This document shows, piece after piece, positions 28,776-61,056 of a stretch of DNA of 64,000 nt (position 1 is the first letter of the stretch; every line of letters begins with the position of its first letter). The notes beneath the pieces were generated by a model that was not told the DNA's origin, did not search any database, and saw only the letters and a list, made by a program, of their open reading frames with translations. The position numbers and the translations under genes are program-made. The stretch is from a virus. Where the stretch lies: the IMG/VR virus record IMGVR_UViG_3300031227_000013. One strand, written 5' to 3'.

Positions 28776-29780
28776 TTAAATAACCGCCCCATTTTCCCAG
28801 CTATGATTTGCCGTTCCGGAAAAATCAGCCCGACATACTGCTGCAGCATTACCCACAGCCGCGCCAATACATTCATAGGCAAAAAATTCCAACATGAAGT
28901 CTTCTTTCTTTGTGGACAGTGTAACATCGTCCAGAACGAAGAAACGACCAAGATACTTAGGCTCAGCAAACTGATAGATTACACCAGTCGGAACCAGATC
29001 AGTCTTGATAGTGACGATCCAATTTAAGCCCATGATTTTTTGCTGTGAGAATCCGTTAACAAACATCTCTTCAGCCAAATCTCCACCAATGTTATCGCGA
29101 CTGAGTTGGACAACATCCCAAATAGTGATGTTATTAACCAGCGCCATGGCAGGATTAAGATGACGATTAGTCGTAGGCAGACCTTTACGCATTTCGGCAA
29201 GATTAGCTCTTGTGATTCCGTTGTACGTAATATTTTGACAGGCGTTAATCTCGGTGTTCAGAGAGTTAGCATCCTGACCAGCAGCCACATCTACATTAGC
29301 AGGTGATCCCTGCGTGACAATGTAGTCGACAACATATAAATACTTCCGGTCTTCTTCGGACATTATTTGTTTGAGGATAATATCTTCCAGGATCTGTTTG
29401 ATATCCATGTCGTAGGTGAGCAGGGTGTTTACGTCTGCACGGAATCTACGGGACATGATTCTATCGAACATTACGCGGAAGCGCGGTCCCTTGATATAAT
29501 GACCAACAGGCAGAGTACCGAAAGGTACGCTATACGCTGCAGGAGCATTAGGTTCTTTATCAAGGATGATTACTGGTTTCTCAGTGTCTACCTGACGGTC
29601 GAGGTCAGCCGGTTCGACTTTCGTCGGAGGCTGAATTCTACGGGCGAAGCCATCTTCATAAAGACGGATGCGCAGATAATCTTCTACGCCTTCCTGTGCT
29701 TCCTTACGAATGACGGTATCGTCAGACAAGAAACCGTTAATGATTTGTTCATTAACCATTCTTGTTGTTGGATCTTGCAT
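28776..29780 (-). CDS. Major capsid protein (HK97-like fold)
   Basis: 334 aa; follows protease, scaffold and decoration genes; strong terminator; FARRIQPP, RQVDTEKPVIILDKEP, IMSEEDRKYL, C-terminal FFAYECIGAAVGN. Confidence 0.85.
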   Translation of the reverse strand: MQDPTTRMVNEQIINGFLSDDTVIRKEAQEGVEDYLRIRLYEDGFARRIQPPTKVEPADLDRQVDTEKPVIILDKEPNAPAAYSVPFGTLPVGHYIKGPRFRVMFDRIMSRRFRADVNTLLTYDMDIKQILEDIILKQIMSEEDRKYLYVVDYIVTQGSPANVDVAAGQDANSLNTEINACQNITYNGITRANLAEMRKGLPTTNRHLNPAMALVNNITIWDVVQLSRDNIGGDLAEEMFVNGFSQQKIMGLNWIVTIKTDLVPTGVIYQFAEPKYLGRFFVLDDVTLSTKKEDFMLEFFAYECIGAAVGNAAAVCRADFSGTANHSWENGAVI

Positions 29781-38527: not shown

Positions 38528-38556
38528 CTTTTAAATCCTTGTTTGTTGTGTTAGAT

Positions 38557-38919
38557 TTATTTATTTATTGAATTAAGTAAATTAAGACCTTTAATATTCA
38601 TAAGCTTCTGAGCTTTTGCCGGTGCTGCTTTTAATTCATGACGAACACCTTTAGCCATACCTGTTAAATCCTTTACTATACCGGGTGAAGCTGTGTGTTT
38701 AAGCTCTGGAGTTAGAGCTTTTAAAAAACCCGACTTCCGATTAAGTATTTTTGCTTCAAGATTTGTTAATGCTCTTGTAGCCATATTTCCAGGTAATAAA
38801 TTAGGGGACCTTCCACTTTTGGCTCCACGTTCCGCTAATCTTTTAAGCCATCTAATAAGGGGTTCTCCACGAGCTGCTTCCTTCTCCATATACCCTTTAT
38901 AGTATGCTAGTTTGTTCAT
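38557..38919 (-). CDS. Leader-tagged small basic protein (MNKLAYYKGYMEKEA)
   Basis: Leader coding DNA shared with 38952-39605. Confidence 0.75.
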   Translation of the reverse strand: MNKLAYYKGYMEKEAARGEPLIRWLKRLAERGAKSGRSPNLLPGNMATRALTNLEAKILNRKSGFLKALTPELKHTASPGIVKDLTGMAKGVRHELKAAPAKAQKLMNIKGLNLLNSINK

Positions 38920-39607
38920 TTCTTCTTGTCCTTCTTAATATTTTTATATAATTATGTTAAATTTACCTTGTACTTCATCTTCAATTGAGGATTAGACCTA
39001 CTTAATTCAAGTAGTTTTTTCAGTCTATAAGATCTCATTTTCTGCTCAGAAGTTGCCTTCTCATTTCTTATGCCGAATGGTCCTGACATGATATTATTAA
39101 AATACTTCTTCATTTCCCTATTCTTCTTCTGCCATTCAGGATTGGCTGCTAAATCTGGATGTACTCCAGCTGAACCATACCTAGTTTCTTGTCCTGATTT
39201 TGCACCTTGCTTAGCTCCCCCAATAGGATCTTTAGCTGTTTGAGCTCCTATTGTTGCTCCGACAGTTATTGGATTAAATGCCTCTTTCTCCATAACAGGT
39301 CGAGGTGTATGTTTTCCAAATACTAATGGAATACTCCTTTTCAATGAATTACTCCATCCTAAGTTTCCTTTAGAAATATTACCTATATCCACTTTAAAAT
39401 CATGTATGCTTTTATCTACATTTTCTGGAACTTCCTTTGCTATACCTCCTGCTACTCCTCCAGTTACAAAATCTCGTAACCATGATGCAGACCTCTGCTT
39501 CAGTTCCCTATTACGCATATGCCTATCAAGTTCTTCCTGTCGTGTAGGCATAATCCCTAAAGCTTCCTTCTCCATATACCCTTTATAGTATGCTAGTTTG
39601 TTCATTT
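38876..39607. repeat. 46-bp exact direct repeat (38876-38921 and 39562-39607) covering two gene starts
   Basis: gcttccttctccatataccctttatagtatgctagtttgttcattt present twice. Confidence 0.95.
38952..39605 (-). CDS. Leader-tagged protein (MNKLAYYKGYMEKEA; internal MEKEA)
   Basis: Direct reading of sequence. Confidence 0.75.
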   Translation of the reverse strand: MNKLAYYKGYMEKEALGIMPTRQEELDRHMRNRELKQRSASWLRDFVTGGVAGGIAKEVPENVDKSIHDFKVDIGNISKGNLGWSNSLKRSIPLVFGKHTPRPVMEKEAFNPITVGATIGAQTAKDPIGGAKQGAKSGQETRYGSAGVHPDLAANPEWQKKNREMKKYFNNIMSGPFGIRNEKATSEQKMRSYRLKKLLELSRSNPQLKMKYKVNLT

Positions 39608-41890
39608 TCTTTTGTCCTTAATATTTTTATATAGTTCTTGTCCACTGACAACACTCGGGATATATGATGTGCCTCCCCCTTCTGATGTGGCTCCTTTTTG
39701 AGCTGCATCTAAAAAAGACTTCTTAAGATCGAATCCTCCGAGGCGTGTTACCCAGTCCGGATCTGTTGATACAATGTCCCGGACACGGGATACAAACGGT
39801 TCAAATGGAGGGACATCCCTGTGTACTACTATATTACCTGTTTTAGCAGAAGACAACTTTTTTGCGACATTAGCTGTGATTTTAGTGCCTATAGAATAAT
39901 GCAGTACCGGTTTCTCCAGATACATTCCTACCGACTGTTTAGGATTCTGTAACGTCGAAGTAGGTCTGGGTCTATAATCTCTGACAACATCGTCGTAGGG
40001 TATAACATCGTTAATAAAATGTCCTTCGTATCCGTTAGGATCCGTTACCCGAACTCTGTTTATAAATCCACGGGAGATAGCTTCTATATTACGTCTATGG
40101 TTACCAGCCCCGTTATCCTTTAAAATCTTATTGTACCTCTCTGTGAAGTAGCGTCTGCCCTCTCCGATGCCTTTGTATTTGACAACCTCTCCTGGATTAG
40201 GAACTCCGGAAGATAAAGCATCTCCCGCTTCCATACGCTGTCCTGTCTTTACTTCTAACTTTCTATCTCCGGGTACATAATGTTCCTCGGAGTTGATATG
40301 TACATACCAGCCCCCTTGTGGAGCATCTTCTATCTTTCCTATGGAACCGTCTGTAGAAGCTAATGTAGCGGAGCCTATAAAATTCTTAGGAACCTGTACG
40401 AACTGGTCTATCTCTTTAAACCCTGTTACCTTCTTATCGTCTTCTCCGACAACCCCACCACTATGTTTACTGCTGTTGGATACTATCATTCCGTTAGCCA
40501 ATACAAAGAGATGATCTCTGCTATCTACTTCGAGATCGTATGTCTGTACTTCTCTGAGTCCTTCGCAATAACTCATCCAGCCCAGTACATTCTCTCCGGA
40601 CCTTTTAAATATAGCTGTGCCCAGAGACAGCAGAGGAATTATTTTATGTTTATTAAGTTCGCAGTCCCCCATAGGGAAGCCTAGTACTTTATGTTCCTTG
40701 GTAGCTATTAGATATTCACTGAATTTAACATCCAGACTTGCGAATATAGTATGGTAGCATTCTTTGATACCGTTGTTAAAAACGTTAAGAACTTTTACAG
40801 GGGATGTATTACATTGTACATCAGACCCCATAACAGATTCTCCAACCTGTATATCCTTGATCTTCCTGACAGATCCGTCTGCCATTCTTACAAGAGTGTT
40901 TTCTTCTAAACATAGTCCTGCCTGTGTAGTAGGTTCCGCGATAGCTCTGGCAGCTGTAACTCCTACAGCATCCCCTATATCAGGGAATTCTCCCCCTTCT
41001 CTGCGTCCGGAACATTTAGAACATATTCCTGTAGCGGCCTGACAGGTAGCTGCGGAACGCACATAAACAGGTTGGTCTTCCAGTAAAGGAAGATGTTCCT
41101 TATTTATTTCTGTTCCTGCAGGTAATCCGTTAACAGGTTTAGCGAGAATAGATCCGACATTGTCCGAATCATCCCCGTCTACTTCCAGCCCGACCTCTTG
41201 TGCTCCGCAATCATTCTCTGTAACTACTACTCTATGTGCGGCTTGTGTTAACTGCTTACCAAAATACCCACTGTCTGCTGTAGCGAACTGTACATCGCTA
41301 TACCCTTTTCTAGAGCCATACGAAGCGGCCCAGTATTCAATCGGAGACACACCCTCTCCATACCCGTGGAGTCCCGGAATAGGGACAGGTTTATTTTTAT
41401 GGTCGAGAACGAGCATGTCTCCGAACATTAGCTGCATGAGCTGGGCTGTGTTACCTCTAGCCCCTACACGAACCTGCTCTGTGAAACTGTTTTTGCCTCC
41501 GCCCGATCTTAGAAGGAGATTCTGAACTTTCTTCATTTCGGGAACAAGCAGTTTAACTATTTTTTCGCCCTTCTGATCGGAAGTTAGAGTCGGGCTGTTA
41601 GCTATCCTGGCAACATCGTCTCTGTATTTATTTCTGAGCTGTTTAATGGCAGGGGGCAGTTTAAGATCGTTAAGAGATAAACTTGCGGTCCTGCCATAGT
41701 CATTGACAGCCATTCGGGATACATCGCTTACCTTCTGTAAGGTATCTATATATCCATCGGGGTCGTCTTCAGCTACACTTGATAACAGAGCAGACAGAGA
41801 CTTCTTATCGAGTTCTCTGCCTTCATCTCTGTATTTCTCAGGAAGCGCTCTGTTAAAAAGCACTTTACCTATTGTTGTAGTATCGGGCAT
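39602..41890 (-). CDS. rpoC: RNA polymerase beta' C-terminal part (funnel, bridge helix, trigger loop) with one intein
   Basis: GARGNTAQL, EGVSPIEYW..SYGSRKG..D..FATADSGYF..QL, NDCG/RSAATC/GICSKC Zn site, ARAIAEPTTQ, IEAISR. Confidence 0.9.
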   Translation of the reverse strand: MPDTTTIGKVLFNRALPEKYRDEGRELDKKSLSALLSSVAEDDPDGYIDTLQKVSDVSRMAVNDYGRTASLSLNDLKLPPAIKQLRNKYRDDVARIANSPTLTSDQKGEKIVKLLVPEMKKVQNLLLRSGGGKNSFTEQVRVGARGNTAQLMQLMFGDMLVLDHKNKPVPIPGLHGYGEGVSPIEYWAASYGSRKGYSDVQFATADSGYFGKQLTQAAHRVVVTENDCGAQEVGLEVDGDDSDNVGSILAKPVNGLPAGTEINKEHLPLLEDQPVYVRSAATCQAATGICSKCSGRREGGEFPDIGDAVGVTAARAIAEPTTQAGLCLEENTLVRMADGSVRKIKDIQVGESVMGSDVQCNTSPVKVLNVFNNGIKECYHTIFASLDVKFSEYLIATKEHKVLGFPMGDCELNKHKIIPLLSLGTAIFKRSGENVLGWMSYCEGLREVQTYDLEVDSRDHLFVLANGMIVSNSSKHSGGVVGEDDKKVTGFKEIDQFVQVPKNFIGSATLASTDGSIGKIEDAPQGGWYVHINSEEHYVPGDRKLEVKTGQRMEAGDALSSGVPNPGEVVKYKGIGEGRRYFTERYNKILKDNGAGNHRRNIEAISRGFINRVRVTDPNGYEGHFINDVIPYDDVVRDYRPRPTSTLQNPKQSVGMYLEKPVLHYSIGTKITANVAKKLSSAKTGNIVVHRDVPPFEPFVSRVRDIVSTDPDWVTRLGGFDLKKSFLDAAQKGATSEGGGTSYIPSVVSGQELYKNIKDKRK
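40475..40912 (-). mobile_element. Mini-intein (146 aa) in the beta' trigger loop
   Basis: CLEENTLVRMADG..KIKDI.VG..V at start; TYDLEV..HLFVLANGMIVSN/S at end; splits EPTTQAGL/SSKHSGG. Confidence 0.9.
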
Positions 41891-42588
41891 TATACTCCAA
41901 GTAGTTTTTTTAAACTTTTCTCTGTCATTACTTCTTCGGGTAGCTTCTTAGAAACTATCCCTCCCATTTTTAGCGCAGCCTTATTAGAGACTCTAGTTTT
42001 TCCATATTTAAATCCGGGAAGAACCTTTTCCAACATTGGACGACTGCTATCTATATTCCTCATATGAGTAAAAAAATCTTTAACAGCTTTATATTTTTTA
42101 GGTAAAGAAGCTATCATATTACTTTCCTGAATAACTACTTCAGGCCCTCTATGCCCATGCCATAATTGAAAGGGTTTAGATAAGACCTGTTTACGTTCTA
42201 ATCCCTCATGCATAACTGAAAGGCGATTAATCATTTCTCTATTTATAGGTATTTTTGCATCGGGGTTAAAAAAATTCACCGCTGGGATATTTAAGATATC
42301 TCCTCTGGATATTATCTTACCTGGAGGAACATTAGGCATTTTAGGCATTTTCTTTCTTAAAACAGATGGAATATTTTGAGATGTTATAGCCCCTATACTA
42401 ATCAATGGCTCTTTATTACTAGACAATATTTTTTTAGTAAATCCTGTGAGGTTGGTATTCTCATTTATAAAAGGAGCTCGTCTAATCCAATCCCCTGACC
42501 GTCTAAGGAGTTTAGAGGCTTTACGGACTCCTTTTATATCTATAGCTTTCTTTTCAAGATATCCTATATGAAATGCTAATTTATTCAT
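41890..42588 (-). CDS. Leader-tagged basic protein (MNKLAFHIGYLEKKA); HEGLE HExxE/H-like motif
   Basis: Direct reading; TAATG-coupled to rpoC-C. Confidence 0.7.
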   Translation of the reverse strand: MNKLAFHIGYLEKKAIDIKGVRKASKLLRRSGDWIRRAPFINENTNLTGFTKKILSSNKEPLISIGAITSQNIPSVLRKKMPKMPNVPPGKIISRGDILNIPAVNFFNPDAKIPINREMINRLSVMHEGLERKQVLSKPFQLWHGHRGPEVVIQESNMIASLPKKYKAVKDFFTHMRNIDSSRPMLEKVLPGFKYGKTRVSNKAALKMGGIVSKKLPEEVMTEKSLKKLLGV

Positions 42589-42598
42589 TCGACATTAT

Positions 42599-42988
42599 TT
42601 ACCTATTAGAAGCGTATTGATTTTGCTGTGGATACGGATTAGGTGGAATGGGCTGTATCTTATTTGACGGTTTACCTCCGGCATAATTAAACTGTTGGAA
42701 CATGGAGGGTCCCTTTCTTTTAGGTATCGGAATACTGGTAGACATTTTGCTTTTTGTAGGAGAAAGCGTATTTTTAGCTACCGTTAAAGGAGATGTAGCT
42801 TCCACCTTCTGTTTCTGAGTGTCAGCAATCTGCCGGGGTATATTTTCTGTAGAGGAAGGAGATCCTATAGCTCCTCCGTAATTAACAGCCCCTGTCTGAC
42901 CTTCTGTAGGATTGCCACTGATTGCACTTTTTAATGCATCCGTAGCATTCTTATCTATATATCCCTGATAAAATGCTAGTTTATTCAT
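42599..42988 (-). CDS. Leader-tagged low-complexity protein (MNKLAFYQGYIDKNA)
   Basis: Direct reading. Confidence 0.7.
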   Translation of the reverse strand: MNKLAFYQGYIDKNATDALKSAISGNPTEGQTGAVNYGGAIGSPSSTENIPRQIADTQKQKVEATSPLTVAKNTLSPTKSKMSTSIPIPKRKGPSMFQQFNYAGGKPSNKIQPIPPNPYPQQNQYASNR

Positions 42989-42989
42989 T

Positions 42990-43832
42990 TTAGCTCCTGA
43001 GGTTTTTAATAAGATCCTGTATCTTCATAACAGATGATTTACGCTGTCTACTCGAAGCCATTACAGGCATTCCAGGCATTCCTTGAGGAGGCATTCCAGG
43101 AGGAGGCATTCCAGGCATAGGGGGCTGTGCTCCGCCCATACCCATCGCTGCTGGATCTTCTTCCGGAGGTTCAGCTGCTGCTTCTAATGCTTCAGGAGTC
43201 ATTCCATCTTGAATTTCTTCGGGAACTTCTGTGGTTTCTTCTCCGAGAGGGGGAGATGTTGTATCTTCTTCTACAACTCCGAGATCTTCCGGAGCGACAG
43301 GAGGAGCCATTCCAACAGCCCCCATAACTTCCATTACCTGATTTTCAACTTCATCCACTCGGGCTTCTAAGTCTGCTTTAGTAGGCTCTCCGGATTTTTC
43401 CTTATCCATTTCTTCGATAGCTTTAGGAAGGATTTCCAAAAAACGTTCTTCGGTAAGAGGTGTTCCTACAGGTTCTTCAACAGGAGGTGCGCCCATCATC
43501 GCAGGATCCATAGGAGGCATTCCACCCATCATCGCTGGGTCCATCGGAGGAGGGGGCATTCCACCCATCATAGCAGGATCCATAGGAGGTGCTCCGCCCA
43601 TCATAGCAGGATCCATAGGAGGAGGCATTCCGCCCATCATAGCTGGGTCCATCGGCATTGGAGGTGCTCCGCCCATTGGGGGTGGCATTCCACCCATCAT
43701 AGAGGGGTCCATTGGTGCTCCGCCCATCATTGCCGGGTCCATCGGAGGAGCTACAGGTGCCGGACCCATAGGGACAGCAGCTTCTTTGTTCATCAAATCT
43801 TTTACTTGTCTAAGTAATTTTAAATCAATCAT
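42990..43832 (-). CDS. Met/Pro/Gly-rich disordered protein with MDPAMMGG(M/A)PP repeats
   Basis: About six imperfect repeats; MNKEA near N-terminus; RBS AGGAG. Confidence 0.75.
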   Translation of the reverse strand: MIDLKLLRQVKDLMNKEAAVPMGPAPVAPPMDPAMMGGAPMDPSMMGGMPPPMGGAPPMPMDPAMMGGMPPPMDPAMMGGAPPMDPAMMGGMPPPPMDPAMMGGMPPMDPAMMGAPPVEEPVGTPLTEERFLEILPKAIEEMDKEKSGEPTKADLEARVDEVENQVMEVMGAVGMAPPVAPEDLGVVEEDTTSPPLGEETTEVPEEIQDGMTPEALEAAAEPPEEDPAAMGMGGAQPPMPGMPPPGMPPQGMPGMPVMASSRQRKSSVMKIQDLIKNLRS

Positions 43833-43901
43833 TTCCAGATCTCCTTTTATCTTTTAATATATAATATAAAACTATTTTTTACCACTATTTATCATATAGT
43901 T

Positions 43902-43927
43902 AAAAAAAGGGAGGTTAATCCCTTTTT
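43902..43927 (-). terminator. Intrinsic terminator ending the accessory island
   Basis: AAAAGGGA-TTAACC-TCCCTTTT plus T-run. Confidence 0.7.
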
Positions 43928-43978
43928 AGTTCTTATAGTAATCTAATTCTCATATTATCCCCCTGTGTTTTTTAAACG

Positions 43979-44215
43979 TTACTGCTCTGTGGTATCCTTG
44001 CCTAAGTAAATTGTGGGTTCCTCGTATTCCAACACCTCTGTTGGAATCTTCACCCATACCGCATCTCCACCGCGCGTAGATAAAAACTTTTGAGCCAGAA
44101 TGCTTGTATCTAACTCAGAGCAACCATTGTACCCGTACTTCTCAACAAAGATTTTTATTATCTCTGTTGGTCTGTAGAATGCTGGTGCTTCTTTCAATAA
44201 TTCTTTTCTTTTCAT
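43979..44215 (-). CDS. Hypothetical protein
   Basis: 78-aa ORF, ATGA-coupled. Confidence 0.55.
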   Translation of the reverse strand: MKRKELLKEAPAFYRPTEIIKIFVEKYGYNGCSELDTSILAQKFLSTRGGDAVWVKIPTEVLEYEEPTIYLGKDTTEQ

Positions 44216-44679
44216 ACCGATACCCAGCCCCTCTTTTTATTAAACCATATCTTCTTCTTAACTCCCTCAAAAGATACTTCTTTTAAAGACTTATCGACAG
44301 TGTATCTAATACAGCTCTTTTTAGATAAATACACTATATCCCCTTTACTGAGCTGTCCTTTATATATAATAGGTTTATTTAAAGGACAACATAATATCTT
44401 AATTCTTAGTTTTTCTGTTAGATCATTACAGTCATTACAGTCCTTACAGCGTGTGCAATTCACACAATCTAAACAATTCATGCAGTCTCTGCAATTCACA
44501 CAATCGATGCAATTCGTACACTGCTGACAATCCGTACAATTTGTACATCTACTGCAGTGGGCACAATTATGGCAATTAATTAAAGTCTTGCTATAAGCTA
44601 TTGCGTTCTCTTTCGTATATTTAATTGCGATCCATCTATTGTTATTACTATCTACCCAATACTCCCCTACTAATCTCAT
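44212..44679 (-). CDS. CxxC-repeat protein with C-terminal YKGQL domain
   Basis: About 17 Cys at 3-residue spacing; PIIYKGQLSKGDIVY. Confidence 0.7.
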   Translation of the reverse strand: MRLVGEYWVDSNNNRWIAIKYTKENAIAYSKTLINCHNCAHCSRCTNCTDCQQCTNCIDCVNCRDCMNCLDCVNCTRCKDCNDCNDLTEKLRIKILCCPLNKPIIYKGQLSKGDIVYLSKKSCIRYTVDKSLKEVSFEGVKKKIWFNKKRGWVSV

Positions 44680-44691
44680 AATCCTCCCTCT

Positions 44692-45015
44692 TTAAATACC
44701 TTTTACTCTAACTGGTTTTGTACCTTTTAACCACTTAAAACCACCTACTATAAAATCTTCATTCCTATAACACCACCCTATTCCTTCTTTGAAATAGAGT
44801 ATCATACAATCATTTAAGACAAGTCCTCGGGAATGCGGTTGTTCCTCTAGTAAACCCCTATCCCCTTTAAAACTGCGTATCTTAAATACACGGTGTCTAT
44901 CATATCCCTCAGTCCCCGCATAAGCTACATCATTATTATTAAGTTGACCCTTATATTTAATAGGGGCTTTATTTGCACCGAATAAAATATGGTGTCCTTC
45001 AACTTGAGTGCTCAT
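44692..45015 (-). CDS. YKGQL-domain hypothetical protein
   Basis: PIKYKGQLNNNDVAY..LYFKEGIGW. Confidence 0.65.
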   Translation of the reverse strand: MSTQVEGHHILFGANKAPIKYKGQLNNNDVAYAGTEGYDRHRVFKIRSFKGDRGLLEEQPHSRGLVLNDCMILYFKEGIGWCYRNEDFIVGGFKWLKGTKPVRVKGI

Positions 45016-45035
45016 CTACCTCCTTTAAATTAGTA

Positions 45036-45063
45036 GTTATATACTTACAGTATATAATGCCAA
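45036..45063 (-). promoter_or_regulatory. Conserved promoter-like motif, copy 2, a perfect 9-bp hairpin with 3-nt loop
   Basis: TTGGCA-TTATATACT-GTA-AGTATATAA-C. Confidence 0.7.
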
Positions 45064-45089
45064 TAAAAGGAGATTAATTAAGGAGTTAC

Positions 45090-45695
45090 TTATTCACCTC
45101 TTCTAACAGCCCGTGCTTTGTTAGCGTTGACAACAGCTTGTCTGCTTATAGGGGCTTTGTGGGCTGTATTCTCGCGTCTGGTAAGATTAGCATTTATAAC
45201 TTCCTGCTTGCTAATGGGGGCTCCTGTATTCATTACTCTTCCTGTCTTATTCTGATAATCCAGATAATTCTTTGTTATATCCTGTAGAGCACTATATGTT
45301 CGAGCCCCTGTGACTCCTGCAGCTACTATTGGTTTAGCATTGTCTGAATAACCTTCCCACATTCTTCTGGGAGTACTCTGTTTAAGAGATTCCTTCATAG
45401 TTTTATCTGCGTTGCGTTTTATATTCTTTAATATATCTTTATTCCAGCCCTTTGTAGGATCTTTAAAAACTTGCTTTCCAAAATCGTATGCTGTGAAGGC
45501 TGCATTAGTAGTAGGTTTACTTACTCCGTAATCAACCCCTCTATTAGCAGTACCTAACCTAACAGCTTCCTCTACGCCCCCTTCAACTAACTTAGACTTA
45601 TCATATAGCTTTTTAAAAGTAGTTCCCATACTATATGGAGCCGAGTTAAAAGCTTCCTTCTCTATATATCCCTGATAGTACGCTAGTTTATTCAT
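45090..45695 (-). CDS. Leader-tagged basic protein (MNKLAYYQGYIEKEA)
   Basis: Direct reading; TAATG-coupled to the RNAP gene. Confidence 0.75.
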   Translation of the reverse strand: MNKLAYYQGYIEKEAFNSAPYSMGTTFKKLYDKSKLVEGGVEEAVRLGTANRGVDYGVSKPTTNAAFTAYDFGKQVFKDPTKGWNKDILKNIKRNADKTMKESLKQSTPRRMWEGYSDNAKPIVAAGVTGARTYSALQDITKNYLDYQNKTGRVMNTGAPISKQEVINANLTRRENTAHKAPISRQAVVNANKARAVRRGE

Positions 45696-48600
45696 TATAC
45701 TCCTCGTTTCCTGATCTTAACAGGTGTATCTATATCTATTTTACCTGTCTTGTATGCTTTGACAGCATCGGCTTCTGTTTCGAAAACAACCGGAGTTCCT
45801 TTGAGAGGAGTCTTTGTGGCAAGATGTGCTCCCTGTACATATTCCTGATCGGGTTTATACATCAGATTAAAATCTCTTGCTCCGAACAGAATCTTTTCCG
45901 GCATCATTTTATCTCTAGCTTCCGCAACTGCTTTAGCAGAGGAAGGCACATGTATCGTCATTGTATCTCCGTCGAAGTCCAGGTTAAACCCTTTAACTAT
46001 ATGCGGAGGTACTTGTAGAGTATCTCCCTTTGTAAGAATAGGATTAGCCGCAAGTATACTCCACTTGTGCATTGTCGGAGCTCTATTCATTAGAATAGGA
46101 CGTTCCTCCATAACAGCCCGCAGAGCGACCAAAGCGTCACCTTTTCTTTCAGATACAGATTTAGCGGCTTCTGTCGCTTTGTATCCCCCGCGCACCATAT
46201 GTCTTATAACGAAAGGCTCGTACAGTTCCCATGCTCTGTTCTCGGGCAATCCAACCTGATTTAATTTGAGAGAAGGATTAGGAGTTACTACAGCTCTCGA
46301 GGAAAGGTCAACAGCCCCTCCTACCATACGACGCTGCATCATCCCGTGCTTCGGACTTCCTTTTCCAAAGATAGTCTTTAAAAGCCCTCCAACACGCTTC
46401 TCCTGTAGTTCGACGCTATCGGGGTCTCCCAACCCTGAGATAGCTTTAAAGCTGTTATACAGCCGTTCCCGTACTTCAGGAAGATATTCGTCGGGTAGAG
46501 TAGTCTTGGCATCTCTTAGATCGTTTCTGCTGTGCAGGAGTTCTCTATATAGAATATTGAAGTCCGAAGACATATTCATATCGTCTGTTACAACAATAGG
46601 TCTGAACTTAGGAGGCAGTACAGGAACACGGGTCAGCATAAATTCGGTCGGGCTGACTTTATGTTCTTTCATAGACTGCAGAGCTCTGAGTCTTTTAACA
46701 GCGTTGTCTCTTCTGGAGGCTGATGCTGTCTTGACGTCGTTTAATGCGCTGCGTGTTTCCTGATCGACATCTATTTCGGAAAGCATCTTATACATAGCTT
46801 TCCCGCCTTTAACTCCTTTATACTCTTTACGTCCTGCTAGAAGATCTGTATACTCCTTCTGTTTGAGATTGAGTATTCTCCTCAGGAAGTCTTCCATCAC
46901 TGGATTTGGAACAGGCTCGTCTAGTTTGATGTACGAGAATCTGTTTCCTTCCGCTCCTCCTGTTAAGGTTTCGTCGAACAGTCCGCCTTTAACCGGCTTG
47001 AACTGTTTGGGATCGAATGTATCTGCGGTCTGTATCTGTCTGGTTCCTGTAAGTTCTTTGGCGTTCTCATTCGTCATCGCAAATATATTAAGTTTGTTCT
47101 TATCCTTATGTATATTAACTCCGGCAGCCTGTATCATCGCAAGGAACTTCTTGTATATAAAGCTTTCGTCGGGAACCGTAGGAGTACGACCCATTTTAAG
47201 ATCGCGCCAGTAGTCGTCGTTTTTAGACCCTCTTATCAGTTTGGCGTCTTTCATTATCTCTTTAGCGCCGTGGCTTACAAGGGCTGCAATTTCCATGCTA
47301 TTACTAACAAGAACTCCTCCCGCAGTATATGAATGTGTTTTATCAACAGTAAAATCATAAACATTAATTTCGTCTATTCCCGGTTTATCATGTTTATAAG
47401 GTCTAATATCTTTAATAGATACCGGAACTTTACCCATTCTATTAACAATATCCAATTTACGGGGAGGATTTACCAGTTGTCTCTCAGCTACCAGCTTTTT
47501 TAATTTCTTTTTTGTTTTAGGAATAATAGAGGCAGGAACATTTCTGGCTAACATATCTATCAGTATCCAACAAGATTCTGCTGTTAAATAAATAAACCAC
47601 TCTTCTTCCCGTCCTGAAGCTTTGTATATTTTTAGAGAAGATATATTTAATTTATTACCCAGCCATCTATGTAAAAGAACAACTTCTTCGTAAGTAAATC
47701 CATGGGTAGCTATTGCACCTTGTAAAGCAACCCCTCCCTTGACTTTAGAACGATTGGAAATAGATCCATCATCCAATACCCACATACAGATACCTAATTC
47801 ATCCACATGGCTCAGCCATTCTTCAGTTACATGTTTTTTACCGTCTTTTAAACAAACTGCTTTCATCTGATCAACTACATAAGCAGTAGGCATTGTTACT
47901 AATCCACGTCCATAACTTTTACCTGTTCTTTTTAAAAAACTAGGCTTACAATCACTTCTATAAGCCATCAGCCCCGCCAGAACCTTCTGCTTAAAATCCA
48001 TGTATTCTATTTGCTTTGTAGAATGCATAATCTGGATAACACTATTAAAATAGGAATCCCCCAACATACCTCCATACAATACATCCAGCTGATCTTTTGT
48101 TACCAGAGGCCCCCATGAAATAAGTTTATCATCAACTGTTAAATCACCGGCAAGTAATTCACATCCGTCAAATGTATATACCTTATGATTTTTAGTAGGA
48201 TATAAACAGGAGGTATACTTTATCTTTCTGTCTCCTGTCTCACAGGGAATACCTGATACTTCAACACACAATATATCTTCTATTTTAGCTCGATAAGTAA
48301 ACCAGTCCGTAATGGGTTTAAATGTCCACTCCTCCTTATCTTCATCAAATGTCCAGACCTGCTCGGCAAAACGTTTTTCAACTAATCTACCTATTTGTAT
48401 TTCTCCATGAATAGTTTTTATTTTTTGACCTGCTGGAAAGCAACCTATTCTCTTACTCTTCCCACCGCCTGTAGAGGGCTGTTCGTCCATTGTATATCCT
48501 GAGAACGACTTACCTCCGGACTTGGCTTCCGCGGTATGCTGTAACTTAAAAAAGTGTGAAACTCCGTTAAATACTTTAGGTATCTTACGTCCTGTTGTAG

Positions 48601-51600
48601 GGTCGTATATATCGTCTGTATCGCTAAGCCCATGCTTCTTGAGTTCCGTCTGTGCTAGATCTATAAAGGATTCGTCCGGGTCGTCTGTAAAACTTGGTAA
48701 TATATAAGGTTTACCTGTCTTGGTAGCTACCTTACCCAGTGACGATTCTATGAGCTGTGATGAATTCGTTCTGGATATTACACCTACAGGGTTAAGAATA
48801 ATTTCGTAAGGCTTACCGTCCTTATCGTGAATCATTTTGTTATCGGGAATTATATCTCCGACAACGCCCTTACCTCCGTAGAAATTTGCCAGTTTGTCGC
48901 CCCGCTTAGTTGTAGCGTTGGCTCGGACATAGACTTTCCAGCCCTCTTTATTCTTAACAACATCTGTGACAACGCCCGGGTCTTCATGCTCCCACTTCAC
49001 AGAAGAGTCTCTTGTTAGCCTACGACCCATTGTTCCGGGTCCGGGCTGTCTTGTCTTTGTAGATAGAATAAGCGGATCTCCCTGTCTGACGAGAGTTCCC
49101 GGTTTGACTGTACCTTCTTTACCGATAGTCTTGAACTGTTCCGCGGTAAACGTTCCCGGAAACATTGCTGTATACTTATCTTTAAGAACTTCCACTCCGC
49201 TTTCTTCACGAAGCTTATTAGCATACATATGTTCTGAGTTTAGTTTCTTCGCGGCACTTTCTGATATGACTATAGCATCTTCATGCACAGCCCCTTTATA
49301 AGGCATGTAAGCTACCCGGAGATTAAGTCCCAGAGCTGCTGTACCCTTATCGTCTGTAAAGTTAGATCCTGCGATAGCCTGTCCTTTTTTAACACGTTGT
49401 GCTCCCTTTACAAAAGGAATTGTACGCACGGATGTTTTTCTGCTGAAAGGAAAGTTATCGTAGGTATCGTACGAGGATGTTGTTCCGTCGTCGTTCTGTG
49501 TAGTTATCTTATCTTTGCTTATGGATTTAACGATACCATCTTTTTCAGAAGTTATTCTACCCATATGCGGGCTGATGTAATCGTATATATCCTTAGTACC
49601 GATTCTTGTACGGACAAGAGGAGCTTCTCTGTTTGTAAGAGGAAGCGCCTGATTGTGCATTTTCGACCCCATTAGCAAACGCATAGCTTTTATCCCGGAA
49701 GCCATAGGCACCAAGTTAGCTCCTGTACTGAAGAGATCGGAACCGCTGTTTATCATGTAATCCACAGATGTTCGGGGAACATACTTTATACCCTCTCCCT
49801 TTACCATCGCAGGAATAAACTTACCTTTGTATTTAAAACTTTCCGGAAAGGCTACAATAGATCTGGATGCTGTTACAGAATCCACATACTCCTGCTTACC
49901 TGTTTTTGTATTCAGGAACTTCTGATATACTTTACCGTCTTTCCCGTACTGAGTTCCCTGAGCCATCTTCATATCGACACCGACCCTTAGAGAGTTACCG
50001 CACCAGAAAGCTTTGCCTTTACGTCTTACATATACAAGACCTCCCTGAACAGTAGCACAATACACTACACCTTTATATTCTTTTTCGAAAGTATCGTTCT
50101 TTAGAATATAAATAATACCTCCGTCGATTTCCATATTAAAACCTTTACCCAGAATATCTTCGGCAAGCGTCATAACATATCCTATACCATTAGTCTTAAC
50201 ACGCATTCTATGATTAGGAGTAACAAGGAAGTTAACCTGTTTTTTACAACCTATCATCAGCCCGTCGTAATCGTAAGACTGAAGTCCTTCCGGAGTCTTA
50301 TAATAGACACAGTCATGAATACGGCAGGCCAGTTCGTCCTGCATTGTGATATCTTTAAATAGTTTCCAGCCCGTACTTGTTTTGATTTCTGTCTTGTCGT
50401 CGTAACATTCAGGACTTCTCACCATATCTACATACCCACGATATGTGGGCTGTACAGCTCTTGCTTCGTCAGGTACTGCATCCAGAGAGCTTATTCCACC
50501 CTCTCCCATTCTGGTAACCCTGTACGATTGATCTAAAGCGTCTAGAGGATTTATCTCCTCGAGCATCTGACTCAGCCCAGATGTATTGAACAGGCTGTCC
50601 ACATGTTTATTAAGCATTCCGGATTGTAAAGAGGATAAGTTACCCTGATTGGTAATCTTCCATAGTTTATTCCTGAGTACATTACCCGGATCTTTGAGTA
50701 TACGTTCGGCGAAATAGTTATGGGGCCCGTACATTCTCTGGAACTCCATAGAATCCCTATCGTCTGATTTGGCTGTTCCTCTGGATATGTTCAAAAGCTT
50801 TTTAGTAACATCTAGGAAAAGACCTGAACCGACATTGGAATGCGGAGCACCTAATGTTGTCTGTGTAGCGTCCGGGTCCAGCTCCATAGCATTAAAAGAT
50901 TGTTTAAGTGTTTCTATATCTCCCGCTTCCGGACCCATCATCTTTACTTCGGCTGTCTTATTCATACGCATGTGCTTAGGGATAAGGGTCTGTATAGCAC
51001 TGTGTACAGCTTGAGTTGTAGTACCGGCTCTGTTCCTCTTAAGGATTTCCGGCCCCCATGCATCTTCCAGTAAACTGTCCTGAACGCCTAGCGCCTGCAG
51101 TACCGGATAGAGTTTGATCTTTCTACCTCCGGATCTGATGTAGAACTCGGCTGTCTTAGGATTCATGGATACTTTAAAACTGTTTCCTGTTCCCTGTCTG
51201 ACATTGACGTGGGATTCGTATGTACCGTCTCCGGCTACTTTACTGTATACATTAGGAATAAGTCTAAACTGATTGATAAGGGATTGTTCGACTCCGTTAC
51301 GGACGAAGGTCCCTCTTTCTGTAAGATAAGGTACATTGAGTACAGTACGTTTACTTGTACGGTCTATGACTTTACCTGTCTCGTTGTCTCTGAGAGTCCA
51401 GTTACCCTGCAGTTTCTTTGTAAGAGACCTGTTGTTAAGGATAGCTTCCTTCTGCTCTTTGTATGAAAAACGTTTCGTATCTTTGTAGGAAGGATTATCC
51501 AACTCCAGGGTATATCTCTGATTGGATAAAGGAAAGCGTTGTTTAACAGCGTCTATAGAATAATCAAAAATCTGCTGTCTACGGTTATCGTAGTCGTCGA

Positions 51601-51691
51601 AAGACGTAAGGACACCTTTATCTTTCGATAGGGTGTCCGAGATAAATTTCATCCCCGTTGAAGCAGGGGGAGTCGAAGGATTGATAGGCAT
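45695..51691 (-). CDS. rpoB-rpoC: Fused RNA polymerase beta plus beta' N-terminal part (catalytic NLDFDGD) with two inteins
   Basis: beta: TERGTFVRNG, YRVTRMGEGG, LMGSKMHNQALPL, AYMPYKG..EDAIVISE, GDKLANFYGGKGVV, LNPVGVISRTN, KLQH; beta': GGLFD, YIKLDEPV, PVLPPKFRP, VDLSSRAVV, LMNRAPTMHK, FNLDFDGDTM. Confidence 0.92.
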   Translation of the reverse strand: MPINPSTPPASTGMKFISDTLSKDKGVLTSFDDYDNRRQQIFDYSIDAVKQRFPLSNQRYTLELDNPSYKDTKRFSYKEQKEAILNNRSLTKKLQGNWTLRDNETGKVIDRTSKRTVLNVPYLTERGTFVRNGVEQSLINQFRLIPNVYSKVAGDGTYESHVNVRQGTGNSFKVSMNPKTAEFYIRSGGRKIKLYPVLQALGVQDSLLEDAWGPEILKRNRAGTTTQAVHSAIQTLIPKHMRMNKTAEVKMMGPEAGDIETLKQSFNAMELDPDATQTTLGAPHSNVGSGLFLDVTKKLLNISRGTAKSDDRDSMEFQRMYGPHNYFAERILKDPGNVLRNKLWKITNQGNLSSLQSGMLNKHVDSLFNTSGLSQMLEEINPLDALDQSYRVTRMGEGGISSLDAVPDEARAVQPTYRGYVDMVRSPECYDDKTEIKTSTGWKLFKDITMQDELACRIHDCVYYKTPEGLQSYDYDGLMIGCKKQVNFLVTPNHRMRVKTNGIGYVMTLAEDILGKGFNMEIDGGIIYILKNDTFEKEYKGVVYCATVQGGLVYVRRKGKAFWCGNSLRVGVDMKMAQGTQYGKDGKVYQKFLNTKTGKQEYVDSVTASRSIVAFPESFKYKGKFIPAMVKGEGIKYVPRTSVDYMINSGSDLFSTGANLVPMASGIKAMRLLMGSKMHNQALPLTNREAPLVRTRIGTKDIYDYISPHMGRITSEKDGIVKSISKDKITTQNDDGTTSSYDTYDNFPFSRKTSVRTIPFVKGAQRVKKGQAIAGSNFTDDKGTAALGLNLRVAYMPYKGAVHEDAIVISESAAKKLNSEHMYANKLREESGVEVLKDKYTAMFPGTFTAEQFKTIGKEGTVKPGTLVRQGDPLILSTKTRQPGPGTMGRRLTRDSSVKWEHEDPGVVTDVVKNKEGWKVYVRANATTKRGDKLANFYGGKGVVGDIIPDNKMIHDKDGKPYEIILNPVGVISRTNSSQLIESSLGKVATKTGKPYILPSFTDDPDESFIDLAQTELKKHGLSDTDDIYDPTTGRKIPKVFNGVSHFFKLQHTAEAKSGGKSFSGYTMDEQPSTGGGKSKRIGCFPAGQKIKTIHGEIQIGRLVEKRFAEQVWTFDEDKEEWTFKPITDWFTYRAKIEDILCVEVSGIPCETGDRKIKYTSCLYPTKNHKVYTFDGCELLAGDLTVDDKLISWGPLVTKDQLDVLYGGMLGDSYFNSVIQIMHSTKQIEYMDFKQKVLAGLMAYRSDCKPSFLKRTGKSYGRGLVTMPTAYVVDQMKAVCLKDGKKHVTEEWLSHVDELGICMWVLDDGSISNRSKVKGGVALQGAIATHGFTYEEVVLLHRWLGNKLNISSLKIYKASGREEEWFIYLTAESCWILIDMLARNVPASIIPKTKKKLKKLVAERQLVNPPRKLDIVNRMGKVPVSIKDIRPYKHDKPGIDEINVYDFTVDKTHSYTAGGVLVSNSMEIAALVSHGAKEIMKDAKLIRGSKNDDYWRDLKMGRTPTVPDESFIYKKFLAMIQAAGVNIHKDKNKLNIFAMTNENAKELTGTRQIQTADTFDPKQFKPVKGGLFDETLTGGAEGNRFSYIKLDEPVPNPVMEDFLRRILNLKQKEYTDLLAGRKEYKGVKGGKAMYKMLSEIDVDQETRSALNDVKTASASRRDNAVKRLRALQSMKEHKVSPTEFMLTRVPVLPPKFRPIVVTDDMNMSSDFNILYRELLHSRNDLRDAKTTLPDEYLPEVRERLYNSFKAISGLGDPDSVELQEKRVGGLLKTIFGKGSPKHGMMQRRMVGGAVDLSSRAVVTPNPSLKLNQVGLPENRAWELYEPFVIRHMVRGGYKATEAAKSVSERKGDALVALRAVMEERPILMNRAPTMHKWSILAANPILTKGDTLQVPPHIVKGFNLDFDGDTMTIHVPSSAKAVAEARDKMMPEKILFGARDFNLMYKPDQEYVQGAHLATKTPLKGTPVVFETEADAVKAYKTGKIDIDTPVKIRKRGV
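47300..48442 (-). mobile_element. Intein with LAGLIDADG endonuclease (381 aa) in the beta C-terminal GQRFGEME-equivalent motif
   Basis: CFPAGQKIKT start; YGGMLGDS and CMWVLDDGS motifs; VYDFTVDKTHSYTAGGVLVSN/S end; splits KRIG/SME. Confidence 0.9.
49994..50407 (-). mobile_element. Mini-intein (138 aa) in the beta ETPEG-equivalent motif
   Basis: CYDDKTEIKT.TGWK start; LVTPNHRM block B; VYCATV.GG.VYVRR.GK.FWCGN/S end; splits VRSPE/SLRVG. Confidence 0.9.
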
Positions 51692-52776: not shown

Positions 52777-53101
52777 CTTGGATACCTTCCGGGTTTGTAA
52801 ATGACAGGTCCATCCATCTCAGGAGTATCCGCCATGACTTTATATCTTTATCGTATATTTTTTCCTCGAACGAAATTATCGCCACCTCGTCCGCAACCTT
52901 CTGCATAATCTCTTCCCATTCAACCATATCATCGGGAACACTTAAATTAAACTGCCTGACATGCACAGTCTGTACCATAACGGGCTGCTTCTCTTCGGGA
53001 TCTGATTCTTTCCTATCGTATATGACCCCTTCGTAAGGAAGCCCTTCAAATGTATTCGGACCGTATTTCTCTTTAAATCCTGAGGGTTGCGTTGTTTCCA
53101 C
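52769..53101 (-). CDS. Hypothetical protein
   Basis: 110-aa ORF with AGGAG RBS. Confidence 0.6.
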   Translation of the reverse strand: METTQPSGFKEKYGPNTFEGLPYEGVIYDRKESDPEEKQPVMVQTVHVRQFNLSVPDDMVEWEEIMQKVADEVAIISFEEKIYDKDIKSWRILLRWMDLSFTNPEGIQDE

Positions 53102-53381: not shown

Positions 53382-53398
53382 TGTATATAATCCTTATA

Positions 53399-54963: not shown

Positions 54964-54967
54964 TATA

Positions 54968-56860
54968 TTATACTCCGCCTGGAGGGATTTGTCCCTGCCT
55001 GGTTAGATTGACTCCGGTCTGAGCAGCCTGTTGTTCAAGCTCCTTAAGTTTAGATGTCACCATAGCATGGAGAGCATCGTCCGAATGTTTAAGATTAACC
55101 AACTCACTTCTTCGTGTAGTCGGATCCATTGTTAATATTTGCTGAGCGATCTGTTCTGCCTGTATCGCCATTTCATCTAGAGACTGAGGTCCACCCATAG
55201 GGGTAGGTCCTGCTCCCATAGGCATAGCTCCACCCATCTGGGATTCACCTGGCATCGGCATAGACATCCCACCCGGAGCCGGTCCACCCATAGAAGCCAT
55301 ATCCATCGGCATTCCCGGAGGAGGCATTCCACCCATTCCACCCGGTGCAGGTGCGGGCTGATCCATCATAGCCTGCCCCTCTTGATCTTTACCTGTACTT
55401 CTGGCAAGATCTGCAGCCTTCTCGTCGAACATCTGCTGTTCCAGAAGAATCTTATCGACTTCGTATTCGTAATCGATATTGAAAGCACTGAGGGCTGTCT
55501 GATTGGATACTTTGTTAGCACCCAGTAAATTTAGTTTGGTCTGTCTGACAAGATCATCTTCCAATACTGATGTTCTGGTAAGTTCTGCTCCAAGATCCTC
55601 CCACATCAGATGTTTACTGCATTGTCCCATCATCCAGTCCAGCCAGTTATTCATCTGCGAGATAAAATGTATCCAAGTTCTTTCGAACATTCTGAGACCT
55701 ATTGGAGGTCCTCCCTGTACAAGGTTACCTGAATAGAATTCCTGAGGTATCCCCATTGAATTAAGAAGTTCGTCCAGAGCAAGCTGAAGAAGTTCTGTAG
55801 GTGCCAGATTCTTAGCCTCTCCACCCAGAGCCTGATATTCCACAGGGTATGGGATCGAGTGTATAGCTGTAGGATCCTTGCGATGCTGTTTTATCATCCC
55901 TTCGACAGAACGCATGAAGCGTCCGCTGTCGATAGTCAATAAAGGGTCGTTACCCGGGCCACTGCCTTTACGGGTACCCGGAGAAATAAATCTAAAAGGA
56001 ACGATCATATCCATGGCGATGGCTTCGTTGTACTTAGTAAGCATCTGCAGATGGATGACCTGTTCGAAATTGGAAAGGAACGGAGGAAGTCCCCAGCCGT
56101 TCATCTTTGTAGTAAGAGAAGCTGCGGCCTCGCATTTGATATGATAGATCTCGCCCTTCTTGAACATAAACTTTTCGTCTTTAGCGATAGCATCCAGTAT
56201 CTCCCATGGAGTATGTTCCAGATACATCTTATTACCGCTTGTAATGTATCCTCTGACCTTACTCTGCGGTTCGTAGTAATATCTGGTCTCTCCGCTGATA
56301 TCGTGGTACTCCAACTCTATTGATCGTGGGTTCCAGCGGGTTATTCTGAGGTCGTCCTGTTCGTTAGGTATATCCTTGACAAGGAACTTACCCTTCTTAT
56401 TACACTTAGGGCAGGGGCCTTCGAAGCCGAAATCAGCCCACTCGTACTTTACCTGCTCTATAGGATGCATTGTCTTACAGTTTTTACATATAAGATTACG
56501 ATTGAAAGGTCTGTATACAGAAGTGAATGAATTACCGTATGCCATGAGATCGTCCCCCATAAGGGACATGACATCCAGAATGTGTAGATTGTCTGTAAGG
56601 AACTCCGCATACTTCTTCTTGATATTAAAATCGGAAGTACCTGTTATCTCTACTTTTGTAATGAAGTAGCGAACAGCCCGCTGGATGGCTTTGGAATATA
56701 CTCCCTGATGGAGCCATAGATATTCCGCCCAGTTGAATACTTCTTTTAGATTCCTCGGGTAATGAGCTCTGGCATATGTAGCGAAAGGACTGCCGAAGTC
56801 TTTCTGTCCGATAATATCCTGTGTAAGACTGAAAGGATTGGATTGTGAATAGTTAGCCAT
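54968..56860 (-). CDS. Portal protein with a CxxC..CxxC insertion and Met/Pro/Gly-rich C-terminal tail
   Basis: 630 aa; WNPRSIEL, IYHIK, GWGLPPF, IVPFRFIS, LLNSMGIPQE pattern; CKNC/CPKC; upstream of head genes. Confidence 0.75.
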   Translation of the reverse strand: MANYSQSNPFSLTQDIIGQKDFGSPFATYARAHYPRNLKEVFNWAEYLWLHQGVYSKAIQRAVRYFITKVEITGTSDFNIKKKYAEFLTDNLHILDVMSLMGDDLMAYGNSFTSVYRPFNRNLICKNCKTMHPIEQVKYEWADFGFEGPCPKCNKKGKFLVKDIPNEQDDLRITRWNPRSIELEYHDISGETRYYYEPQSKVRGYITSGNKMYLEHTPWEILDAIAKDEKFMFKKGEIYHIKCEAAASLTTKMNGWGLPPFLSNFEQVIHLQMLTKYNEAIAMDMIVPFRFISPGTRKGSGPGNDPLLTIDSGRFMRSVEGMIKQHRKDPTAIHSIPYPVEYQALGGEAKNLAPTELLQLALDELLNSMGIPQEFYSGNLVQGGPPIGLRMFERTWIHFISQMNNWLDWMMGQCSKHLMWEDLGAELTRTSVLEDDLVRQTKLNLLGANKVSNQTALSAFNIDYEYEVDKILLEQQMFDEKAADLARSTGKDQEGQAMMDQPAPAPGGMGGMPPPGMPMDMASMGGPAPGGMSMPMPGESQMGGAMPMGAGPTPMGGPQSLDEMAIQAEQIAQQILTMDPTTRRSELVNLKHSDDALHAMVTSKLKELEQQAAQTGVNLTRQGQIPPGGV

Positions 56861-61018: not shown

Positions 61019-61046
61019 GTTATATATTTCTAGTATATAATGCCAA
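61019..61046 (-). promoter_or_regulatory. Conserved promoter-like motif, copy 3
   Basis: Identical to 27148-27175; about 60 nt of flank near-identical to 45019-45082. Confidence 0.7.
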
Positions 61047-61056
61047 TAAAAGGAGA

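Follow-up and report, generated by a model that had tools for sequence, protein, structure and literature searches.

What kind of RNA polymerase (RNAP) can a phage assemble from two genes, one of which joins the beta subunit to half of beta', and where in the infection would such an enzyme act? This question is raised by a stretch of 64,000 nucleotides from IMG/VR virus record IMGVR_UViG_3300031227_000013, which we analysed at its full length and call the window. It comes from an uncultured, 185-kb phage, and nearly all of its long open reading frames (ORFs) are on the minus strand. We consider it rather probable that two of these ORFs, P0001 (chain 1) and P0002 (chain 2), encode the whole catalytic core of a bacterial-type RNAP that belongs to the phage, is made of two chains, has its own sigma factor and is loaded into the virion. 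We will examine in turn the anatomy of the chains, the inteins that interrupt them, their distribution and phylogeny, and the arguments for a dedicated sigma factor and for virion carriage.

Chain 1 matches the Pfam families Rpb2_6 (aa 716-1067, 1.7e-45, 156 bits), Rpb1_1 (aa 1635-1731, 44.0 bits) and Rpb1_2 (aa 1856-1929, 88.6 bits), and chain 2 matches Rpb1_5 (63.5 bits), all of these scores being above the curated Pfam cut-offs. The anatomy of the enzyme was mapped through a MAFFT alignment in which the exteins of both chains, joined end to end, were set against Salmonella RpoB followed by RpoC. This alignment is collinear from the N-terminus of beta to the C-terminal region H of beta'. The C-terminus of RpoB (..GINIELED) leads directly into the N-terminus of RpoC, through a joint from which about 18 residues of the two free ends are missing, and chain 1 stops at RpoC ~551, that is, it includes beta' residues ~1-550. 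This beta' part comprises the clamp, the clamp helices and the active-site barrel with its NLDFDGD motif. In its AlphaFold model (aa 1465-1998, mean pLDDT 80.7) two long clamp helices are visible, at model residues 246-288, and the structures that resemble the model most are those of cyanobacterial and plastid RpoC1 (9dvs_D and 8ras_D, TM ~0.53 on target), with bacterial beta' next. The catalytic lysines of beta (GDK..GGKG) are retained in GDKLANFYGGKGV, while the enterobacterial lineage-specific inserts of beta and beta' are missing from the spliced chains. Finally, a 32-residue gap between GGLFDETLTGGAEG and NRFSYIKLDEP removes exactly the zinc ribbon of beta' (RpoC C70/C72/C85/C88).

Chain 2 takes up beta' shortly after the point where chain 1 leaves it. 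It starts with MPDTTTIGKVLFN, which aligns with RpoC 572 (TTVGRAILW), placing the cut between RpoC ~551 and ~571, and it matches bacterial beta' chains in the PDB at 8.8e-38. It contains the bridge helix (YGSRKGYSD..), the trigger loop with its His retained (..SSKHSGG), region H and the second zinc site, in which all four cysteines are kept (C228, C283, C290 and C293). The distance between the two genes is 3804 bases. The initial annotation, made from the sequence without database searches, had described a 1998-aa ORF running from beta into beta' up to NLDFDGD, a missing zinc-binding segment, and a remainder of beta' some 3.8 kb downstream; the Pfam matches and the alignment bear out the first of these claims, and the 32-residue gap and the start and position of chain 2 the other two.

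The beta-beta' fusion is genuine and is not an artefact of assembly or of reading frame, because an intein-free homologue of 1475 aa, 74% identical to P0001 over the searched region (aa 1466-1998), and more than 100 others share the junction. The spliced chains of the window, of 1479 and 616 aa, agree in length with those of the closest relative, which has no inteins (1475 and 613 aa).

Three insertions separate the precursors from these spliced forms. Their boundaries were set by alignment with intein-free homologues from Salmonella phage Arash, Vibrio phage D69 and metagenomes. Intein 1 occupies the equivalent of E. coli beta E565/G566, in the Rif cluster II loop, and is missing from Arash, D69 and the homologue P0003. 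Intein 2, whose match to LAGLIDADG_2 covers aa 1203-1373 (1.4e-14), sits at the E. coli beta motif QRFG/EMEVWAL, an insertion that the relatives do not have, and intein 3 falls at E. coli beta' M932/R933 and is missing from Arash, D69 and the uncultured relative L008. All three carry Cys1, a TxxH block, a terminal Asn and a +1 Ser, and judged by these motifs and by their absence from orthologues they are class 1 inteins. The penultimate His is missing in each (endings GN, SN and SN). This could be taken to mean that the RNAP genes are decaying or inactive remnants, with essential motifs interrupted three times, but we give this explanation hardly any credence. Both reading frames stay open, for 1998 and 762 codons, with the catalytic motifs intact, the inteins keep the four other features named above, and a protein identical to that of the window was seen on at least 24 contigs from many samples. 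Across the family of beta-fused enzymes, inteins are moreover frequent at these RNAP sites, which makes hot-spots of the Rif-pocket loop, the QRFGEME motif and the trigger loop.

Two homologues of 583-585 aa, P0161 and P0162, were considered as a third split form of the enzyme, and this was rejected as they start inside an intein at the site of intein 2. Found on contigs of 219 kb and 86 kb, they consist of ~42 residues of an intein C-terminus (..VVSN/SKRI..) followed by the beta tail and the N-terminal part of beta' (beta'N). A split, trans-splicing intein and an intein with its endonuclease in another frame are the candidate explanations.

In the Rif pocket, residues are changed at the equivalents of D516, H526, S531, I572 and R687 and, given these differences and the established genetics of rpoB resistance, the spliced enzyme of the window is predicted to be rifampicin-insensitive.

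The same layout is found well outside the source phage. A tblastn search of deposited phage genomes found the same two genes in Arash (OQ632216; gp206, 1525 aa, and gp216, 606 aa) and in three Vibrio phages, D69 (where 0261 is the homologue of chain 1), D148 and D181, with chains 28-34% identical to those of the window. These phages have in common with it the junction, the split point of beta', the loss of the zinc ribbon, the position behind the portal gene, an orthologous sigma factor and membership of one clade; the cultured phages differ by having no inteins. Arash has ~40 additional residues inserted in the N-terminal part of beta', and the end of its gene for the C-terminal half of beta' (beta'C) is overlapped by a helicase gene. 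In Arash and D69, the head module behind the portal matches the window in gene order as far as the capsid gene, and the order portal, fused gene, beta'C and head genes is kept across lineages that are ~30% identical. The uncultured relatives L008 and L009 have the fused gene, then two small genes, then beta'C; a portal homologue stands next to the RNAP genes in Arash, D69 and L008, and the flank of L009 is without one. As the two RNAP genes of D69 are only 640 bases apart, the genes that lie between them in the window are variable cargo.

We also searched a collection of 5.8 billion metagenomic proteins with the beta'N part, which returned 660 clusters with E<=1e-10. In all of the best 120 of these 660, which were listed, Rpb2_6 and Rpb1_2 occur together on a single chain, and in most of them Rpb1_1 is present as well. 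The intein-free homologues typically measure 1410-1500 aa, and many are on contigs of 180-220 kb. Two variants of the layout were seen. In one clade beta is divided, its N-terminal part standing alone and the remainder being joined to beta'N in a protein of ~1020 aa. In the other variant both subunits are whole and share one chain of 2058-2156 aa (P0281, P0282, P0284, P0286, P0290 and P0299). The beta'C protein, when searched against IMG/VR, recovered no relative. Additional Pfam domains were noted in several relatives (P0081, P0111, P0110, P0120, P0099, P0006, P0256, P0265 and P0261), namely GNAT acetyltransferase, SET and 2H/LigT-type phosphoesterase domains in some relatives of chain 1 and NUDIX in some relatives of beta'C, one beta'C being fused to an SNF2-type helicase.

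The window is a new, intein-laden member of a large clade. The initial annotation had presented the layout as a different two-chain organisation, and in this respect its claim holds by half: the architecture is already deposited in databases for Arash and the Vibrio phages, annotated as 'beta' and 'beta'', and the Arash proteins are reported from virions, while no published description of the fusion was found. The Arash paper names the two proteins 'beta' and 'beta'' and does not mention a fusion (PMC10585845), and a full-text literature search, in a collection without most subscription journals, retrieved no account of phages with a beta-beta'N fusion, whether in a review of phage RNAPs, a comparative paper on jumbo phages or a jumbo-phage review of 2026.

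To place these enzymes among phage and cellular RNAPs, we built a maximum-likelihood tree of the active-site region of beta' (51 rows, LG+C20, ultrafast bootstrap and SH-aLRT support). All the beta-fused phage enzymes form one clade (29 rows, 100/100), the 16 cellular-type beta' form another (100/99), and the two stand together, apart from the beta' of phages YerA41, Carin-5, RP13, IME392, Va2 and RHph_TM30 (98/94). Inside the fused clade, the window protein groups with P0003 (99/92), and there are distinct subgroups, namely that of the window (100/99), the pair of Arash and D69, and the single-chain enzymes (100/95), whose branching order is weakly supported (83/36). The phiKZ protein gp55 was excluded from the final tree: it was 35% filled, had a branch of 4.5-4.9 in the first tree and scored 27 bits against the beta'N profile, when every other tested sequence scored more than 250 bits. 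The zinc ribbon is absent from 10/10 members of the fused clade in which the motif could be located and present in Salmonella RpoC and in the 7/7 other phage beta' examined, phiKZ gp55 included, so that its loss marks the fused clade.

How does this organization compare with the split and fused RNAPs already known? The RNAPs of phiKZ and AR9 are built from relatives of beta and beta', the latter in two pieces, and contain neither alpha nor omega, and a virion form of the enzyme starts the infection (PMC7598289, PMC4666361, PMC13282480). The RNAP of the window resembles them in being phage-encoded, in the division of beta' and in that no alpha or omega gene was found. It differs from them in that its beta is continuous and fused, and that a sigma factor is found in Arash, D69 and the phage of the window, whereas in phiKZ and AR9 beta is split too (giving 4-5 chains), there are two paralogous sets and a phage-specific fifth subunit, and there is no sigma. 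No phiKZ-like phage was among the listed BLAST matches.

Among cellular enzymes, Helicobacter and Wolbachia have an rpoBC gene in which the C-terminus of beta is joined to the N-terminus of a whole beta', the zinc ribbon is kept, and the enzyme contains alpha2 and omega. This differs from the window in that the whole of beta' is in one chain, when chain 1 ends at about half of it. An artificial E. coli enzyme with beta and beta' tethered in the rpoB-rpoC order, again with a whole beta', reportedly still needed alpha. A similar cut is found in the cyanobacterial and plastid RpoC1 and RpoC2, in which beta' is also divided after the active-site barrel and of which RpoC1 is the nearest fold to the beta'N model; there, however, beta is separate. 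Where chain 1 ends, gamma continues for ~65 residues, and the start of RpoC2 corresponds to about residue 14 of chain 2. As far as PDB alignment ranges allow them to be placed, the cuts are therefore close and not identical, that of the window lying some tens of residues upstream. The two-chain organisation differs from those of the phiKZ/AR9, Helicobacter and cyanobacterial enzymes, as had been proposed from the sequence at the outset.

The beta and beta' relatives of YerA41, Carin-5, RP13, IME392, RHph_TM30 and Va2, several of which have beta' split in the same region, differ in that beta is never fused and the zinc ribbon is kept, besides their position outside the clade of fused and cellular enzymes. 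Where the context is informative (YerA41, Carin-5 and RHph_TM30), their RNAP genes sit with replication genes. In Cobetia phage Carin-5 (L012:2799-9624), a sigma gene is found directly upstream of an unsplit beta' gene and a beta gene in the replication module; the Carin-5 enzyme is another little-described bacterial-type phage RNAP, from an unrelated lineage. As for the metagenomic single-chain enzymes, they belong to the same fused clade (100/100) but have the whole of beta' in one chain.

A core made of beta and beta' calls for partners, and the initial annotation had recognised no alpha, omega or sigma gene. For the window this stands, as none of the Pfam families for the three subunits was found in its 53 ORFs at E<=0.01. 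For the phage it does not hold in the case of sigma. When contigs 99.9-100% identical to the window were walked outward, an ORF of 252 aa, P0312, was found ~15 kb beyond the start of the window in the same phage. Searched alone, P0312 gives a single Pfam match, to Sigma70_r3 (E 0.0019), which is below the cut-off. The profile of its family, on the other hand, gives 62 matches in the PDB, and 60/60 of those listed are sigma factors (best 2.7e-10), SigF being aligned over profile positions 63-234. P0312 also aligns over its full length with Arash Gp10, and on these alignments we assign it to the sigma70 family as the ortholog of Gp10. This family has 843 representative clusters at E<=1e-10. In the deposited genomes, Sigma70_r2 has two matches in Arash and one in D69, and each of these two records, searched whole, contains one Rpb1_2 locus, hence a single RNAP set. 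RNA_pol_A_bac has no match in the whole Arash or D69 records, in which omega was not searched.

It could then be that the phage chains assemble with the alpha, omega and sigma of the host into a hybrid polymerase that is not autonomous. The absence of alpha and omega genes just described is what such an enzyme would entail, the fused family is the nearest to cellular beta' on the tree, with ~30% identity to bacterial RpoB and RpoC, and the tethered E. coli enzyme is said to have kept its need for alpha. We nevertheless regard this as improbable. The hosts are very different (Salmonella, Vibrio, and those of uncultured marine and peat phages), yet one conserved enzyme is found together with its own sigma family, and carriage in the virion would require that the host subunits be packaged too. 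In addition, phiKZ-type enzymes work without alpha or omega (PMC4666361).

The case for carriage in the virion comes from gene order and from a cultured relative. The RNAP genes had been placed between the portal and protease genes, of which the portal is secure through its PHROG match and its homology to Arash gp204, and the protease is weakly supported (32658-34112 against the head-maturation-protease PHROG, E 0.006). All four junctions of the RNAP genes with their neighbours are overlapping stop and start codons (TAATG three times and ATGA once), which agrees with the translational coupling proposed initially. As regards the leader-tagged neighbours of that proposal, the leader MNKLA[YF]..GY.EK starts 3/4 of the flanking genes; in the remaining one, which lies upstream of the fused gene (51691-52776), the likeness is limited to MNKTA. 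In the virion preparation of Arash, the fused protein Gp206 was the most detected protein, with 3516 spectra, Gp216 was the fifth with 1210, and the sigma factor Gp10 and the helicase Gp217 had 467 and 1148 (PMC10585845). We divided these reported spectra by protein length and obtained 2.3 spectra per residue for Gp206, 2.0 for Gp216, 2.0 for Gp10 and 2.4 for Gp217, against 1.5 for the portal, a pattern that would fit a roughly equimolar set with a copy number at least similar to that of the portal. The conserved synteny and the Arash mass spectrometry together make packaging plausible, and by analogy delivery with the virion is likely in the phage of the window.

The alternative is that the two-chain enzyme is made during infection to transcribe middle and late genes and is not a component of the virion, in which case the position of the genes and the Arash spectra would reflect co-expression and contamination. 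The comparable enzymes of YerA41, Carin-5 and RHph_TM30, encoded in replication modules, speak for it. We hold this to be unlikely, although it is the most serious competitor, since the position directly behind the portal is kept between lineages ~30% identical, Gp206 heads the Arash list while both chains, the sigma factor and the helicase exceed the portal per residue, and a phage whose one RNAP is encoded among late-type genes must have some polymerase available at time zero.

Several points weigh against a virion-loaded, autonomous enzyme, and two of them also favour the alternative just described. The Arash virion list has 116 of ~270 proteins, including many non-structural enzymes such as ribonucleotide reductases, and its authors raise contamination by lysate carry-over (PMC10585845). 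Neither RNAP chain bears the N-terminal leader of the head neighbours (MNKLAYY.GYMEKEA type). Moreover, the phage of the window is known from its genes alone, and the virion proteomics is that of a distant relative. Alpha and omega were looked for with Pfam models, which a small divergent subunit would escape, and the check for a single RNAP set covered Arash and D69 only. The sigma factor could equally serve the host core, and the beta flap tip, which contacts sigma region 4, is shorter than in Arash. Lastly, the beta' tree has no root, and cells are represented in it by no more than 16 sequences.

With these points in mind, the reading that we prefer, a phage-owned two-chain RNAP with its own sigma and carried in the virion, can be set out as follows. 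The three inteins would splice out before the enzyme assembles, and the covalent tether between beta and beta' would take over the assembly role of the cellular alpha dimer. The enzyme would read phage promoters by means of P0312. Together with the internal leader-tagged proteins, it may be packaged in the head and enter the next host with the DNA, where transcription could start without the host polymerase and, given the changes in the Rif pocket, would be insensitive to rifampicin. As there is a single RNAP set in the cultured relatives, the enzyme is probably also active later in infection, and the label of early RNAP given at first may be too narrow. The two-chain layout would be ancestral to the clade that includes Arash, the Vibrio phages D69, D148 and D181, and hundreds of uncultured phages of 150-220 kb. 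A stronger version, which we put forward tentatively and hold to be distinctly less probable, is that two chains and sigma, without alpha, omega and zinc ribbon, form a self-sufficient minimal holoenzyme that is carried in the head, is the sole RNAP of the phage and runs a programme independent of the host.

Table 1. Coordinates of the RNAP genes, their inteins and motifs, and landmarks of the head module in the window.
Feature	Position	Strand	Details
Chain 1 gene (P0001), complete beta and N-terminal half of beta' in frame	45695..51691	(-)	1998 aa precursor, 1479 aa spliced
Intein 1, 138-aa mini-intein, P0001 aa 429-566	49994..50407	(-)	beta ..RSPE/SLRVG; TPNH block B
Intein 2, 381 aa, LAGLIDADG homing endonuclease, P0001 aa 1084-1464	47300..48442	(-)	beta ..KRIG/SMEIAAL
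Junction of beta C-terminus and beta' N-terminus, with zinc-ribbon deletion site (GGLFDETLTGGAEG / NRFSYIKL)	46900..47110	(-)	alignment
Catalytic Mg-binding motif NLDFDGD, aa 1903-1909	45965..45985	(-)	motif in alignment
Promoter-like motif CTTAAT-N17-CATTAT between the RNAP genes	45054..45082	(-)	identical copy at 61037-61065
Chain 2 gene (P0002), C-terminal half of beta'	39602..41890	(-)	762 aa precursor, 616 aa spliced; Pfam Rpb1_5 and Hint-type matches
Intein 3, 146-aa mini-intein, P0002 aa 327-472	40475..40912	(-)	trigger loop ..TTQAGL/SSKHSGG; Pfam Hint/Hom_end_hint
Portal gene (start of head module)	54968..56860	(-)	PHROG portal 1.6e-5; Arash gp204 3.5e-65; D69 7.5e-76
Major capsid gene (far end of module)	28776..29780	(-)	PHROG major head protein 4.3e-6; Arash gp226 3.9e-27

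The rest of the module offers little by way of recognisable families, and a Pfam and PHROG search of ten neighbouring ORFs gave almost no matches. A leader of the form MNK[LIT]A[YF]..GY[MI][ED]K.A starts at least 10 small ORFs between 38557 and 61536 (minus strand). The same leader is found on many module genes of the closest relative (L008:1172-19248) and is barely present in the distant L009. Between the RNAP genes, a protein of 280 aa (42990-43832, minus strand) consists mostly of PMDPAMMGG-type repeats and has no family match; L008 has it at the same position (49% identity), and L009 does in part. It was considered as an extra RNAP subunit and rejected as a low-complexity repeat protein, and it may belong to the internal head proteins or to the ejection proteins.

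A putative promoter also lies between the two RNAP genes. The bipartite motif CTTAAT-N17-CATTAT has 9 matches against 2.6 expected, four of which are exact, on the coding strand and intergenic. A scan of 38000-57500 for sigma70-type promoters and terminators found them not above the shuffled expectation. No helicase family was found in the window. In Arash the beta'C gene overlaps the downstream helicase gene gp217 (L001:11839-15077), and in phiKZ gp74 is followed by the helicase gene gp75 (L017:31626-35256); in the virion list, the Arash helicase equals the RNAP in abundance (PMC10585845). A free-standing ORF (27607-28626, minus strand), which has a helix-turn-helix at its N-terminus and lies immediately upstream of the capsid gene region, is probably the source of LAGLIDADG-type Pfam matches and likely a homing endonuclease. 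Contigs from other samples are 99.9% identical to the window down to its base 71 and then diverge, and the window therefore starts at the contig end of a permuted assembly.

In reviews, the phage multisubunit RNAPs are the sigma-less enzymes of 4-5 fragments found in phiKZ-like jumbo phages (PMC7598289, PMC13282480). The beta-fused family would add to them a two-chain tethered core that replaces alpha and omega, a sigma family of its own and an apparent delivery by the virion. Arash and the Vibrio phages are in culture, which makes these proposals directly testable, and a minimal, probably rifampicin-insensitive bacterial-type RNAP would be attractive to structural biologists and as a tool for orthogonal transcription. 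The position of the family beside the cellular enzyme on the tree bears on how RNAP subunits have fused and split in evolution. If the stronger version given above is true, these phages would hold a third class of phage multisubunit RNAP, one that depends on sigma and is the nearest known relative of the cellular enzyme.

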